A DNA stretch of 25,274 nucleotides from a virus. Positions 2,644 through 25,274 of this stretch are shown here, piece after piece; position 1 is the first letter of the stretch; every line of letters begins with the position of its first letter. Made by a program: the position numbers and the translations under genes. Location of the stretch: the UHGV virus genome UHGV-0164608, one strand, 5' to 3'. Below the pieces are notes generated by a model. The model had not been told where the DNA came from. It was given only the letters and a program-made list of their open reading frames with translations, and made no database searches.

Positions 2644-2989
2644 TCTCTGCTCCTGTTGATACGGAAAGGGAAACAGGCACACCGTTATTACGCCGCCCGG
2701 TCAGCTCCACCACCATTGAACCGTCAAAATTGCTGTTAATGGTGATGGAATCCAGCGTCAGCCGTGGCTCCCAGCGACTCAGCGCCACATACACTGCCGA
2801 CATGACCTGCAGGCGTAATGCCGGATTTTGTGACTGGTCTATCAGTGCCGACAGCAGAGAACCATATTCCCGACGGGCAATACGGCTACCCTGCGGTGTC
2901 AGCAGAATGTCCCGCACCGACTGGCGCAGATGGTCAATATCAGTAATGGCTTTGCCGCTGGTATTATTCATCCCGCTATAAAGCGTCAT
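2630..2989 (-). CDS. W: Baseplate wedge protein (P2 gpW / gp25-like)
   Basis: 119-aa product. ATG at 2989 overlaps the V stop (ATGA). Size and position match P2 W. Confidence 0.88.
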   Translation of the reverse strand: MTLYSGMNNTSGKAITDIDHLRQSVRDILLTPQGSRIARREYGSLLSALIDQSQNPALRLQVMSAVYVALSRWEPRLTLDSITINSNFDGSMVVELTGRRNNGVPVSLSVSTGAENGSD

Positions 2990-3564
2990 ACCGGACCTCC
3001 GGTTGTGTCGCCGCCTTTCAGGACGCCAGTATGCTGATGCGCATCAACCACAATCCCGTTAGAACTCATCGCTCCGCCGCCCTGGGTAACGCCACCATTG
3101 ATCACCACTTCGCTGTTAATGCGCGTGCGGTCAGCCTCCAGTACAAACTCACTGGTTTTCATGGTGATGTTGTCGACAGCCTCAATGACCATTGATTTGA
3201 TGCCCCTGACATACCAGCGCCCGGTGGCGGGTTCGTATTCAAACCAGCCACCGTCAGGATGTTCTGTCACGCAGGCGTCCGCCGACGTCGACGGTGGAGC
3301 GAACTGATTCGAATAGACAGCGGGCAACGCAAAGGCGGTTTCAAGATTTCCGCCCAGACTCAGCAGCACCACCTGTTCACCTTCCGTTGGTCGCCACCAT
3401 GTGCGGGCATTCCCGGCACGCAGCGTCAGCCAGCTGATCCAGTTGGTTTCAAGGTCGCCCGTTTTCACCCGACAAAGCCAGTTTTCCCTGTCCACTTCGG
3501 TGACTACCCCTGTGCGGATCAGGTTGGTGATGAGGCGCATGATTTCGGTTAGTTGTGCGTTCAT
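2986..3564 (-). CDS. V: Baseplate spike / assembly protein (P2 gpV-like)
   Basis: 192-aa product MNAQ...IRTG.V.E.D...RCRV.TG...W..WL..RAG..RTWW.P..GEQV, closely parallel to P2 gpV. Confidence 0.9.
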   Translation of the reverse strand: MNAQLTEIMRLITNLIRTGVVTEVDRENWLCRVKTGDLETNWISWLTLRAGNARTWWRPTEGEQVVLLSLGGNLETAFALPAVYSNQFAPPSTSADACVTEHPDGGWFEYEPATGRWYVRGIKSMVIEAVDNITMKTSEFVLEADRTRINSEVVINGGVTQGGGAMSSNGIVVDAHQHTGVLKGGDTTGGPV

Positions 3565-3610
3565 AGGGAAAGGTTGCCATCAGGGGAAGAAAGGCGGCAG
3601 TGCTGCAACT

Positions 3611-3628
3611 TGTATCAGTGCTGATACA
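3611..3628. promoter_or_regulatory. Perfect dyad TGTATCAGTGCTGATACA (TGT-N12-ACA) between S and V; candidate Ogr/B-type late-activator binding site
   Basis: TGT at 3611-3613 and ACA at 3626-3628 with 12-nt spacer, fully palindromic, centred about 55 nt upstream of the V start codon. P2-family late promoters carry TGT-N12-ACA upstream of -35. Confidence 0.5.
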
Positions 3629-3632
3629 AAGA

Positions 3633-4079
3633 TCACCCCGCCAGCCATTGCAGAATCATGTCGCGGGTCATTGCCTCAACATCATCATTTACACCCAGCA
3701 GGCGGCGCTCTGCGTAACGGACCTCCGGTCCTTTGCGACTGACGCGATCACGCAGGCCGTAATGGTGAACACGGGCAATACGCTGCACCTTGCCTTCAAA
3801 CTGTACGCTGGCAGAGTCGGCGCTGGCGGCAGTTTTCAGGTATTTTGTGGTGCGCAGCTTTGCAAACATCTGACGTTTGATGCGCCCCTTCTTGCTGCGT
3901 GCTGTTACCCTGCGCGGTTCATAACTGCTGCCATCTGGATTGCGCTGCATCCTGATATTCTGCTGCTGTGTCCGGCGCAGTTCCTGCGCCAGCTGGCGCA
4001 TCATGCGGCTTCTCGTGGCTGGTTCCAGATTCGCCAGCAAGGCACTCAGCCAGTCGTCCATCTTCTGCAGTTCAGCCAC
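3633..4079 (-). CDS. S: Tail completion protein (P2 gpS-like)
   Basis: 148-aa basic protein in the gpS position. The track start at 4079 is GTG; an in-frame ATG at 4061 is an alternative start. Confidence 0.85.
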   Translation of the reverse strand: MAELQKMDDWLSALLANLEPATRSRMMRQLAQELRRTQQQNIRMQRNPDGSSYEPRRVTARSKKGRIKRQMFAKLRTTKYLKTAASADSASVQFEGKVQRIARVHHYGLRDRVSRKGPEVRYAERRLLGVNDDVEAMTRDMILQWLAG

Positions 4080-18744: not shown

Positions 18745-19598
18745 GCACGTACTCCGTACACGGCAGAACTGTCCACGCCACGCGAATAATCAAATCCCAC
18801 CCAGCAGCGCGGCCCGGAAACAGCAATGATTTCTGTTGCTGATTTACCCTCTCCAGCTGCCACACCGATGTTGCGTTTTGCCTTGATGTAGTGGTGAGTA
18901 AAATTGCGATACAGCGAACGGATCAGGGATGTGTCACTGTTAGAAACAATGACCGGATGTCCTTCTGATGACCGATGTTCAAGAACGGATGCCAGGTGAT
19001 ACTGGTCATCTTCAGTGAAGCCGTCAGTGTGATAACCGGAAAACGTGCCGTCATACGGCGGATCGCAATACACCACATCCCCCGCCTTCAACATCGCCAG
19101 CGTTTCATCAAAGCTGGCGCAGATAAACGTTGCCCGCTGGGCTTTTTCTGCAAATGCGCGAATTTCTTTTTCAGGGAAATACGGATTTTTATAATTACCG
19201 TAGGGAATGTTGAAATGCCCGCTCTTGTTATAGCGACATAAACCACGGTAACCGTGACGATTGAGATACAGGAAATATACCGCTTTCATGAAATCAGTAA
19301 TTTCAGTGGAGTAATTAAACTCCTGCCTTATGTTGTAATAAGCCACCTCCCTGTTTGCGATCTCAAATAAAACTCTGGCGCGAGATATAAACGATTCACA
19401 ATCAGCGGCAACCTTTTTATAGAGGTTGATTAAATCAGGATTAATATCCGCAACCAGATAGCTGGGGTAATCCGTCTCCATCATCACAGCACAGGAACCC
19501 GCGAAAGGTTCAACCAGTCGCGGGCCAGCAGGAAGGTGTTTTTTCAGTTCGGACATAATGGCGGTTTTATTTCCCGCCCATTTCAGGATGGTGCTCAT
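18741..19598 (-). CDS. dam: DNA adenine methyltransferase (Dam-like, N6-adenine)
   Basis: [23 protein letters not shown]...[11 protein letters not shown]... and DPPY. ATG at 19598 with GGAGGTG upstream, overlapping the upstream stop (ATGA). Confidence 0.85.
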
Positions 19599-19822
19599 AC
19601 AGCACCTCCGTTGTAATGTTTGCCTTTCAGCTCTGCGATTTCCTGACAGGTAATGCAAAGCTGCACACCTGGAATGGCGCGGCGGCGTGCTGGCGGAATT
19701 GGCGCTTCACACTCAATGCAAAGCACGCGGGACACGCCCGGCGTTTTGGCACGGGCAGCACGAATATGGCGCTGGCGTTCTTCTTCAACGCGCTGCTGTA
19801 CAAGATCCATTGCATCAGCCAT
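19595..19822 (-). CDS. TraR/DksA-family C4 zinc-finger protein
   Basis: 75-aa product with CIEC-x17-CITC. Confidence 0.7.
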   Translation of the reverse strand: MADAMDLVQQRVEEERQRHIRAARAKTPGVSRVLCIECEAPIPPARRRAIPGVQLCITCQEIAELKGKHYNGGAV

Positions 19823-22111: not shown

Positions 22112-23788
22112 ATGAATTCATTTTCCATCGTTATATTCTTATTAGCATTTCTCGCCCCTGTTCTAGCTATAATATTATTTAAGCAAAGTAAAGAACACAA
22201 AGCCGCCATAGATAACCTGACGGCTAACAACATAGCCCTTTCCAGCCAACTGAGTGAAAATCAAGAAAAGTTAGCACAGACTGCACGAGATCTATCAGAG
22301 CTTGAAGGGCGAGCAGCACCATTATGGCAATACGAAGAATTGCACAGCGCAGTGATGGAGGCAGAGAATAAGATAAAAAATGCAGACTCAATAGCTAGGC
22401 AAAAAATAGAAGAAGCCCAAATAAAGGCAGCTAAGACAGTAAACGAAGCAAGTTATCAAGCTCAGATAACAATAAGCAACGCTAATAGCGAAGCTATAGC
22501 AATCACCAAAGACGCTCGCGATGCACGCCTGAAAGCCAAAGAACGTCTTGATAATGCCAACAGTAAAGCAAATGAGCTGATCTCAAATGCTAATGACAAC
22601 GCAGTAAAAATTATTTCCGATGCAGAAGAAAGAGCAAAAGAGATTGCTGGTTCAGCATATGAAGCTAAAGAGTTTGCAGAAAAATATGAAGCAGTTGCCA
22701 AATCAATGAAAAATAAAATTGAAGGTTATGGCGATGAATGGATCATCCCTAACCGTAGTGTACTTGATGAATTGGCAGAAAATTATGAGTTTACAGATGC
22801 AGGCAAGGAATTACAAAAAGCCAGGGAGTTAACAAAATCATTAATAAAAACTAATAAAGCAGCTTCGTGTGATTATGTTGAGCAAAACAGGCGTAATACT
22901 GCTATCAACTTTGTTTTGGATGCCTTCAATGGAAGAGTTGACAGTATTTTATCGAAAGTCAAACACAACAATTTTGGAAAACTTTCCCAAGAAATAAAAG
23001 ATGCATTTCAACTTGTAAATTATAATGGATCTGCTTTTAGATCCGCAAAAATAAGTGACATCTATCTTCAGGCACGACTCAACGAGCTAAAATGGGGAGT
23101 TGCAGTTAATGAAATTATGCTCGAAGAAAAAGAGGAGCAAAGAAGGATTAAAGAACAGCTTCGTGAAGAGGAAAGAGCTCGTAGAGAGTATGAAAAAGCG
23201 ATAAAAGAAGCCGAAAAAGAAGAGAAAGCTATTCAGCAAGCTATAAATAAAGCGACGAAAGAGCTTATGCTTGCAAATGAAGAACAACGCTTAGCTTTAG
23301 AGCAAAAAATAGCTGAACTACAGTTAAAATATGAAGAAGCTGAAGCTAAAAACCAACGAGCTATTTCTATGGCTCAACAAACTAGATCAGGCCATGTTTA
23401 TATAATTAGCAATATTGGCTCATTTGGCGAAGATGTATATAAAATTGGAATGACACGCCGCCTTGAACCACTTGATCGTGTTCGTGAACTTGGGGATGCT
23501 AGTGTTCCTTTTTCGTTCGATGTTCATGCGATGATTTATAGTGATGATGCACCGTCATTAGAAAATCATCTGCATAAAGTCTTCAACGAAAAGCAGGTCA
23601 ATAAAATTAACTCACGAAAAGAGTTTTTTAACGTAAATATTAAAGAAATTAAATCGGTTATTGAAGATATGAACATCAATGCCCACTGGACAATGTTTGC
23701 AGAGGCGAAAGAATATAGAGAGTCACTAGCTATTGAACAGGAACGCAAAGCAGCCACTTCCGCCAACGATGAACTACATGTTGCTTAG
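22112..23788 (+). CDS. Membrane-anchored coiled-coil protein with C-terminal T5orf172/GIY-YIG-like domain (DUF4041-like architecture); candidate defence/abortive-infection moron
   Basis: N-terminal TM helix MNSFSIVIFLLAFLAPVLAIILF, ~400 aa of A/E/K-rich coiled coil, then GHVYIISNIGSFGEDVYKIGMTRRLEPLDRVRELGDASVPFSFDVHAMIY...LENHLHKVF. AT-rich, 20 nt downstream of cI. Confidence 0.7.
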   Translation: MNSFSIVIFLLAFLAPVLAIILFKQSKEHKAAIDNLTANNIALSSQLSENQEKLAQTARDLSELEGRAAPLWQYEELHSAVMEAENKIKNADSIARQKIEEAQIKAAKTVNEASYQAQITISNANSEAIAITKDARDARLKAKERLDNANSKANELISNANDNAVKIISDAEERAKEIAGSAYEAKEFAEKYEAVAKSMKNKIEGYGDEWIIPNRSVLDELAENYEFTDAGKELQKARELTKSLIKTNKAASCDYVEQNRRNTAINFVLDAFNGRVDSILSKVKHNNFGKLSQEIKDAFQLVNYNGSAFRSAKISDIYLQARLNELKWGVAVNEIMLEEKEEQRRIKEQLREEERARREYEKAIKEAEKEEKAIQQAINKATKELMLANEEQRLALEQKIAELQLKYEEAEAKNQRAISMAQQTRSGHVYIISNIGSFGEDVYKIGMTRRLEPLDRVRELGDASVPFSFDVHAMIYSDDAPSLENHLHKVFNEKQVNKINSRKEFFNVNIKEIKSVIEDMNINAHWTMFAEAKEYRESLAIEQERKAATSANDELHVA

Positions 23789-23846
23789 CAATGTATGTTT
23801 CATAGCAATCACACATTGATTACTGGTTGTATATACAGTTAAATTT

Positions 23847-23872
23847 AGCCCTCTGATATGAGGGCTTTTTTA
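23847..23872 (+). terminator. Rho-independent terminator abutting the int start codon
   Basis: AGCCCTC-tgatat-GAGGGC followed by TTTTTT, then ATG of int. Confidence 0.6.
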
Positions 23873-24924
23873 TGGCAGTACGAAAACTCACCACAGGAAA
23901 ATGGCTTTGCGAATGTTACCCCGCCGGACGTAGTGGACGTCGTGTGCGTAAACAATTCGCCACCAAAGGCGAAGCACTGGCTTTTGAGCGTCACACGATG
24001 GAAGAAACCGAAGCAAAGCCCTGGCTAGGTGAATCAGTGGATCGTCGAACACTGAAAGACGTGGTTGAGCTATGGTTCAAACTACATGGTAAATCACTGA
24101 CAGCTGGGCAGCATGTCTATGACAAATTGCTGCTGATGGTTGACGCTCTGGGCAATCCCCTTGCAACTGATCTAACCTCTAAAATGTTTGCCCACTATCG
24201 AGATAAACGCCTGACAGGAGAGATCTACTTCAGCGAGAAATGGAAGAAAGGAGCAAGCCCGGTCACCATTAACCTGGAGCAAAGCTATCTAAGTAGTGTT
24301 TTTAGCGAACTATCCCGCCTGGGCGAATGGTCGTATCCGAACCCACTGGAGAACATGCGAAAATTCACCATCGCAGAAAAAGAGATGGCATGGCTTACCC
24401 ATGAGCAGATTGTTGAATTACTGGCTGATTGCAAACGTCAGGACCCAATTCTGGCACTGGTAGTTAAGATATGCTTAAGCACAGGCGCACGCTGGCGAGA
24501 AGCCGTAAATCTTACTCGTTCACAGGTGACCAAATACCGAATTACCTTTGTAAGAACGAAGGGGAAGAAAAACAGAAGCATCCCTATCAGTAAAGAGCTT
24601 TACGAAGAGATCATGGCGCTTGATGGGTTCAATTTCTTCACAGACTGCTATTTTCAATTTTTATCCGTGATGGAAAAAACGTCTATCGTGCTCCCTCGCG
24701 GTCAACTCACACACGTTCTGCGCCATACGTTTGCGGCGCACTTCATGATGTCGGGTGGAAACATTCTGGCCTTACAAAAAATTCTCGGACACCACGATAT
24801 AAAAATGACTATGCGTTACGCACATCTGGCACCGGATCATCTGGAAACGGCGCTCCGTTTCAATCCTCTGGCAACGCTGCCAAGTGGCGACAAAGTGGCG
24901 GCAGCGGTTGGCATTACCCCGTAA
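23872..24924 (+). CDS. int: Tyrosine integrase (P2/186 family)
   Basis: 350-aa product with ...GARWREA..., LTHVLRHTFAAHF, LGHHDIKMTMRYAHL (R, H-x-x-R, Y catalytic residues). Confidence 0.9.
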   Translation: MAVRKLTTGKWLCECYPAGRSGRRVRKQFATKGEALAFERHTMEETEAKPWLGESVDRRTLKDVVELWFKLHGKSLTAGQHVYDKLLLMVDALGNPLATDLTSKMFAHYRDKRLTGEIYFSEKWKKGASPVTINLEQSYLSSVFSELSRLGEWSYPNPLENMRKFTIAEKEMAWLTHEQIVELLADCKRQDPILALVVKICLSTGARWREAVNLTRSQVTKYRITFVRTKGKKNRSIPISKELYEEIMALDGFNFFTDCYFQFLSVMEKTSIVLPRGQLTHVLRHTFAAHFMMSGGNILALQKILGHHDIKMTMRYAHLAPDHLETALRFNPLATLPSGDKVAAAVGITP

Positions 24925-25009: not shown

Positions 25010-25274
25010 GTTGCCTGGAATTTATGTCTTTCTTAATCAATTGATTAAAATCATACTTTTACACACATGGCGACAGGGGTTTTACCATTTCGGTGTCAGT
25101 CTTTGTTTTATGCCGTTTCAATCGCGTACAATAAATCAACCAAAGCAACCGCGCCGACATCATCCCAGCGTAAATAACTCGCTAAAGAACTTGTTCCTGA
25201 ATCCTTCCCTAAAACTTTCGTAAGCGTACAGCGAGAACCGTATTGACGGGGATGTGTTATTCAGTTGGCAGTGT

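Follow-up and report, generated by a model that had tools for sequence, protein, structure and literature searches.

Does the inverted repeat in the short spacer ahead of the baseplate gene V of a P2-like prophage serve as the binding site of a late transcription activator, and does a second copy, between the divergent genes O and P, do the same for the operons on either side of it? We addressed this question by computational analysis of a DNA of 25,274 nucleotides, which we call the window. The window is a P2/186-like Klebsiella prophage that is 99.98% identical to phage KP12 (OM835953) over positions 47-25026 and has the same gene order as P2 and 186. Its early region encodes a CI-type repressor and CII, according to the annotation of KP12, indicating a phage of the 186/Fels-2 type.

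Two dyads ahead of the late operons

The two dyads precede late morphogenetic operons of a P2-like genome, as judged from Pfam matches and synteny with P2, 186, and KP12. The identities of V, S, O, and P, which the initial annotation had assumed, were borne out by Pfam (Table 1). The region 3565-3632 is the whole of the intergenic spacer between S and V, no more and no less, and the spacer between O and P is 142 bp. An exact TGT-N12-ACA was found in each spacer, upstream of V and between O and P, at the positions and with the letters originally described: TGTATCAGTGCTGATACA at 3611-3628, 5 nt from the stop codon of S, and TGTACCGACAACCACACA at 9519-9536. The first dyad has perfect 8-bp arms around a non-complementary TG (8 of 9 symmetric pairs), and the second has 4 of 9 symmetric pairs, namely those of TGT/ACA and one inner pair. 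At both dyads the motif extends to TTGT-N12-ACAA.

Table 1. Coordinates of the late genes, the predicted activator dyads, and the predicted promoter elements in the window.
Feature	Position	Strand	Basis or remark
V (baseplate spike), first gene of V operon	2986-3564	-	Pfam Phage_base_V and Apex; KP12 annotation
V start codon	3562-3564	-	predicted transcription start is its A, 3564
V promoter, -10-like hexamer CAACCT	3571-3576	-	-12 to -7 from the A of the V ATG
V-operon Ogr/B-type activator dyad (predicted)	3611-3628, extended 3610-3629		TGTATCAGCACTGATACA on gene strand; exact motif
S (tail completion), last gene of O operon	3633-4079	-	Pfam Phage_tail_S; KP12 annotation
O (capsid scaffold), first gene of O operon	8607-9440	-	Pfam Phage_GPO, 376 bits
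O promoter, -10-like element gCAACCAT	9478-9484 (AACCAT 9478-9483)	-	CAAACAT or CAACCAT in relatives
O/P shared activator dyad (predicted)	9519-9536, extended 9518-9537		exact motif; alignment with P2 and 186
P promoter, -10-like hexamer TAGGTT	9571-9576	+	starts 52 nt from TGT; T at -7 from ATG
P (large terminase), first gene of P-Q operon	9583-11349	+	Pfam Terminase_5, Terminase_6N, Terminase_6C

The gene for an activator of the Ogr/B type is not in the window. The initial annotation had stated as much, and tblastn searches of the window with P2 Ogr, 186 B, and the KP12 protein agreed, yielding no homologue (the best E value, 0.076, is noise). A single small C4 zinc finger is encoded in the window, by the ORF at 19595-19822, and Pfam assigns it to the DksA/TraR type and not to Ogr. 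The cognate Ogr/Delta activator is known from KP12, where it is encoded next to attP, and thus beyond the att junction; the contig ends before the gene. The KP12 protein has 72 amino acids with the cysteine pattern CX2C-X22-CX4C and scores 78 bits against Pfam Ogr_Delta; its identity is 51% to P2 Ogr and 54% to 186 B. Because homology to KP12 ends at 25026, at the att junction, ogr of the prophage would be expected about 9.5 kb left of the start of the window.

Several features near the ends of the window are described here for completeness. Positions 1-46 are Illumina Nextera adapter that was left untrimmed and consists, in this order, of GAGAT, the i7 index TAGCGAGT, GTCTCGTGGGCTCGG, and AGATGTGTATAAGAGACAG. 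Homology to KP12 starts at base 47, within the tail-fibre gene, and we conclude that the left end of this contig is contaminated by adapter. At the other end, identity to KP12 stops at 25026, about 100 nt past the integrase gene (23872-24924), and the last 248 nt (25026-25274) are presumably host DNA at a prophage-host att junction; no tRNA gene was found in 25026-25274. A strong terminator-like hairpin (23847-23871, AGCCCTC-tgatat-GAGGGCT followed by TTTTT) abuts the ATG of int at 23872; ahead of this hairpin, the same spacer upstream of int contains an exact TGT-N12-ACA at 23796-23813. An ORF for 558 amino acids (22112-23788, plus strand) is located between the CI-type repressor and the integrase. 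It has DUF4041 and T5orf172/MUG113 (GIY-YIG-like) domains and is labelled 'chromosome segregation ATPase' in KP12. It has no counterpart at that position in 186 or P2 and is a possible moron or defence gene.

Chance, RNA hairpins, and conservation upstream of V

The motif alone was not more frequent than expected by chance. There were 5 matches to TGT-N12-ACA in the window compared to 6.59 ± 2.24 in shuffled sequences, and the dyad at 9519-9536 has little symmetry apart from its TGT/ACA ends. Both observations would be expected if the dyads were functionless chance matches to a six-base pattern. However, the placement of the two matches was not what chance predicts: two were found in the 176 positions of the two spacers, where about 0.046 were expected (Poisson P ~0.001). 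We also scored the whole 25 kb on both strands with a PWM 22 nt wide that was built from sites of other phages only, leaving out the window and sequences identical to it. The dyads at 3611-3628 (23.8 bits) and 9519-9536 (20.4 bits) ranked first and second, and both exceeded every one of 30 shuffled windows, the maxima of which had a mean of 12.0 and reached 19.9 bits at the highest.

The three remaining exact matches in the window (9577-9594, 14627-14644, and 23796-23813) scored at most 12.5 bits, which is the level of the null, and we rejected them as further activator sites. The match at 9577-9594 (TGTGCCATGAACACCACA, 12.5 bits) overlaps the start codon of P, 58 nt from the real O-P site, and its TGT reads TGG in Fels-2 and SEN8; it is probably a chance match. 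The one at 23796-23813 was not among the top 15 PWM scores and has no -10 hexamer at the conserved offset.

The dyad upstream of V was conserved at a fixed position in diverged relatives. We compared 33 unique upstream regions, comprising those of P2 and 186 and of 31 loci that encode a relative of V in Escherichia, Citrobacter, Enterobacter, Pantoea, Erwinia, Tatumella, Rouxiella, and other genera. The exact motif was present in 28 of the 33, starting at -63 to -65 from the ATG in 26 regions and at -77 in the other two, and the flanking sequences were unrelated in many relatives because a different gene precedes V there. In the window, the first base of the dyad is 64 nt ahead of the ATG. Among the 20 relatives that share this spacing, A at -11 and T at -7 were invariant, and the unselected positions -65 (T), -46 (A), and -12 (C) were nearly so, with C at -12 in 18 of the 20. 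Because of these conservation data, we exclude chance as an explanation, and we consider it extremely improbable that the two dyads have no function. Position, homology (described below), and conservation together argue that these two copies are functional even though the motif itself occurs at chance frequency.

Conservation extended to the spacing between the dyad and a -10-like hexamer. Of the 28 V regions that bear the dyad, 26 have a hexamer of the form xAnnnT that begins at an offset of exactly 52 nt from the initial T of TGT. At this same offset, TATAGT is present in the two loci where the dyad is at -77, and there it is followed by a 13-nt leader with GAGGA or GAAGGG; except in these two loci there was no Shine-Dalgarno sequence before V, nor room for one. 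The start of V itself appears well placed: the N-terminus aligns with those of P2 and 186, and there is no alternative in-frame start codon between the upstream stop and the ATG. A fixed distance from dyad to -10 is what is predicted for an activator-dependent promoter from which transcription starts at the A of the ATG. A consensus scan found no sigma-70 -35/-10 promoter in either the S-V or the O-P spacer, which also fits activator-dependent promoters. The -10 hexamers at V, O, and P (CAACCT, AACCAT, and TAGGTT) all have the conserved A at the second position and T at the sixth.

The symmetry of the dyad at 3611-3628 might instead reflect a function in RNA. The dyad lies directly after S, where it could act mainly as a hairpin at the 3' end of the O-operon transcript, as a terminator, an attenuator, or a stabiliser. 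The minus-strand RNA from 3650 to 3585 folds at -25.4 kcal/mol (z = -3.3), with an outer stem (GGCGGG/CUGCCGCC) that encloses the dyad hairpin and is followed by UUUCUUCC, and P2 has a putative terminator after S. However, no run of T directly follows the dyad hairpin, and a terminator scan made no call at the dyad, finding only a chance-level number of candidates. An alignment fold of seven relatives gave a covariation term of +0.41 with one compensatory pair, which does not support a conserved RNA structure. In relatives with another gene before V, 3 to 7 of the 9 pairs were complementary, with a mean of 5.25 compared to about 4.5 by chance. TGT, ACA, and their spacing to the -10 hexamer were kept although the interior of the dyad was not self-complementary, and this is the signature of a site in DNA. 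No Rfam match was found anywhere in the window. Based on these results, we think it very unlikely that the dyad functions mainly as an RNA hairpin. It is possible that the RNA of the S-V spacer additionally acts where the O operon ends, as a weak terminator or as a stabiliser.

Kinship with the activator sites of P2, 186, and their relatives

The dyads correspond in position to annotated activator sites. The initial annotation had matched them to the element bound by Ogr, Delta, and B, and proposed an alignment with the late promoters of P2 and 186. In that alignment the O-P dyad falls within the annotated activator sites of both phages: P2 (GenBank AF063097) has a single annotated site, 3057-3087, for the divergent promoters pO and pP, and 186 (GenBank U32222) has a single B-protein site, 3798-3817, for pV and p12. 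The aligned sequences are TGTGTCAGTGATAAGCCA in P2, TGTGTGGGCGGTTGTCCA in 186, and TGTGTGGTTGTCGGTACA in the window (on the O strand). By this alignment, the dyad at 9519-9536 is the positional homologue of the pO/pP site of P2 and the pV/p12 site of 186. Likewise, the dyad at 3611-3628 is, by its position, the counterpart of the activator site of P2 pV (10239-10266), the transcript of which starts at 10308, where the V coding sequence also begins.

The resemblance to P2 includes the geometry of the promoters. The transcripts from P2 pO and pP start at 3127 and 3016, 111 nt apart, and each start lies at a distance of exactly 64 nt from the first dyad base, counted on its own strand (3063 to 3127, and 3080 to 3016). 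The window shares with P2 the operons that the sites would control, the single site for O and P, and promoters with a weak -10 and no -35; the starts predicted in the window also have the P2 distance of 64 nt to the first base of the dyad, with that of V at the A of its ATG. It differs from P2 in the sites themselves: those of P2 are TGT-N12-CCA (pO/pP and pF) and TGT-N11-ACA (pV), whereas all those of the KP12 type are exactly TGT-N12-ACA. In addition, S and V of P2 are separated by a moron (orf30) and a putative terminator, and a 23-nt leader with a Shine-Dalgarno sequence precedes P in the P2 mRNA; in the window, the ATG of P is at the predicted start.

With 186, the window shares the distance of 87.5 nt from the centre of the dyad to the ATG of the scaffold gene, the left half-site TGTGTGG, adjacent homologues of S and V with a spacer of about 70 bp, and a CI-type repressor in a 186-like early region. 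Differences from 186 are that its sites end in CCA (with only a good left half at the promoter of orf32), that its homologue of P has the 23-nt leader, and that its B protein and the KP12 activator share only 54% identity. Thus, no exact TGT-N12-ACA was present at the annotated late promoters of P2 and 186, although exact matches occur elsewhere in both genomes. In the Fels-2/KP12 group, on the other hand, the exact consensus was present at every late promoter that we examined, including a third site in KP12 at 2748-2765, before the tail sheath gene and outside the window, with CAACAT at the 52-nt offset.

The O-P spacer is organised in the same way in Fels-2, SEN8, and phages of Dagavirus, Gegavirus, and Gegevirus, which have the exact dyad, a distance of 55.5 nt from its centre to the ATG of P, and TATGTT or TAGGTT as the -10 of P. 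The Fels-2-group phages are relatives by sequence, and their late promoters are unannotated in the GenBank records; we know of no experimental study of these promoters. The satellite phage P4 is a further point of comparison. Its promoters bear additional sites, Delta is a tandem duplication of the Ogr fold, and the window contains no satellite genes. Common to both are the TGT-N12-ACA element, found in the Delta-dependent P4 promoters Psid and PLL, and the activator family (PMC3931495). The same source gives TGT-N12-ACA as the consensus of the four late promoters of P2 and states that these depend on Ogr (PMC3931495, which cites Christie and Calendar 1985 on the P2 late promoters).

Alternatively, some other regulator might bind the dyads, be it a host protein like CRP or a further protein of the phage. 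The TGT...ACA ends do resemble the half-sites of CRP, which are TGTGA and TCACA. The consensus spacing for CRP is TGT-N10-ACA, compared to N12 here. Moreover, the positional homologues of the dyads in P2 and 186 are annotated as Ogr or B-protein sites, the phage lineage encodes an Ogr_Delta protein, and the same dyad is ahead of all of the late operons of KP12. We therefore regard a regulator of another kind as highly improbable. The match to the Ogr/Delta/B element is supported by homology, conservation, and PWM rank, and from these we infer binding, dependence on the activator, and the transcription starts in this prophage.

The divergent promoters of O and P

The spacer between O and P contains one high-scoring site by PWM, and its distances to both genes are conserved. 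A scan of IMG/VR with the O protein returned 80 loci, but all were at least 99% identical to the window and were uninformative for footprinting; because of this near-identity, we used phages in GenBank as the source of diverse O-P spacers. The exact dyad was kept in Fels-2, SEN8, ST13-OXA48phi12.1, ST15-OXA48phi14.1, ST258-KPC3phi16.1, and YenM42.18 (Yersinia).

On the O side, the distance of 87.5 nt from the dyad centre to the ATG is equal in the window and in 186. We predict that the O transcript starts at about 9472 on the minus strand because the P2 starts are 64 nt from the first base of the dyad (9536 - 64 = 9472). The leader of O would then be about 32 nt long, with GGAG ahead of the ATG at 9440.

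On the P side, the distance from the dyad centre to the ATG was 55.5 nt in the window and in 5 of the 6 relatives with the exact dyad. The sixth, ST258-KPC3phi16.1, has its first ATG at 55.5 nt too, but P is annotated to start 9 nt further downstream. TATGTT or TAGGTT ends 7 nt before the ATG in all six; this -10 is TATGTT in the Fels-2 group and TAGCCT in P2 and 186. In P2, 186, and vB_EcoM-613R3, the distance from the dyad centre to the ATG of P is 78.5 nt, and the extra 23 nt is the mapped leader of P2 with its Shine-Dalgarno sequence. The start of P at 9583 is secure from sequence comparison: the N-terminus aligns with P of P2 and Orf12 of 186, and there is an in-frame stop three codons upstream with no alternative start between. 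The first base of this start codon is 64 nt from the first base of the dyad, as at V, and the predicted transcription start, 9583 on the plus strand, is the A of the P ATG.

The O-P spacer also contains an inverted repeat, AGCCTT-cattc-AAGGCT (9553-9569), between the dyad and the -10 hexamer of P. Its arms are not kept in Fels-2, SEN8, and other relatives, and it is probably incidental.

Predicted late gene activation and leaderless mRNAs

We think it very likely that the two dyads are binding sites of an Ogr/B/Delta-type late activator that is encoded outside the window and drives the late operons. In the proposed mechanism, the zinc-finger activator of the prophage would bind each dyad, with the centre of the dyad at -55.5, and recruit RNA polymerase. 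The value of -55.5 relative to the predicted starts comes from the mapped starts of P2 and from the hexamer that begins 52 nt after TGT. Because these promoters combine a weak -10 hexamer with the lack of a usable -35, RNA polymerase would depend on an activator bound upstream, about 55 bp from the start. Activation in P2 works through the C-terminal domain of the alpha subunit of RNA polymerase and is blocked by mutants of the rpoA109 type. The dyad at 3611-3628 would drive the V-W-J-I-H operon on the minus strand from a start at 3564. The dyad at 9519-9536, midway between divergent promoters, would drive O-N-M-L...R-S on the minus strand from about 9472 and P-Q on the plus strand from 9583. 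As such, the dyads are an uncharacterised orthologous instance of the textbook regulatory element of P2-type phages.

The predicted starts at 3564 and 9583 are the A of the respective start codons and imply that the V and P mRNAs have no leader. The two genes have the same geometry: at both, the ATG is 64 nt from the first base of the dyad, and at P it is 7 nt after the T of TAGGTT or TATGTT. The 23-nt Shine-Dalgarno leader of P in P2 and 186 is missing in six phages of several genera. Based on these comparisons, we give somewhat better than even chances to the prediction that the V mRNA and the P-Q mRNA, two of the four late operons, are both leaderless in the Fels-2/KP12 clade. A leaderless start of V is already annotated for P2, so the only mildly new point is the predicted leaderless mRNA of P. 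In the literature searched, we found no paper that calls the V mRNA of P2 leaderless, and for P2 the point rests on the GenBank annotation.

The predicted sites have a use in annotation. They would mark the starts of three late operons in a prophage family that is very common in Klebsiella, Salmonella, and Escherichia, and for which database records such as that of KP12 carry coding-sequence annotation only. With their conserved spacing, they also give a search pattern that is sharper than the bare motif: TTGT-N12-ACAA and xAnnnT separated by 34 nt, with transcription expected to begin 64 nt from the initial T of TGT. These results do not alter how late gene control in P2-type phages is understood, and the prediction of leaderless V and P mRNAs is a small, testable addition. 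If the prediction is true, then these phages would have to make terminase and baseplate by 70S-type initiation on mRNAs that lack a leader.
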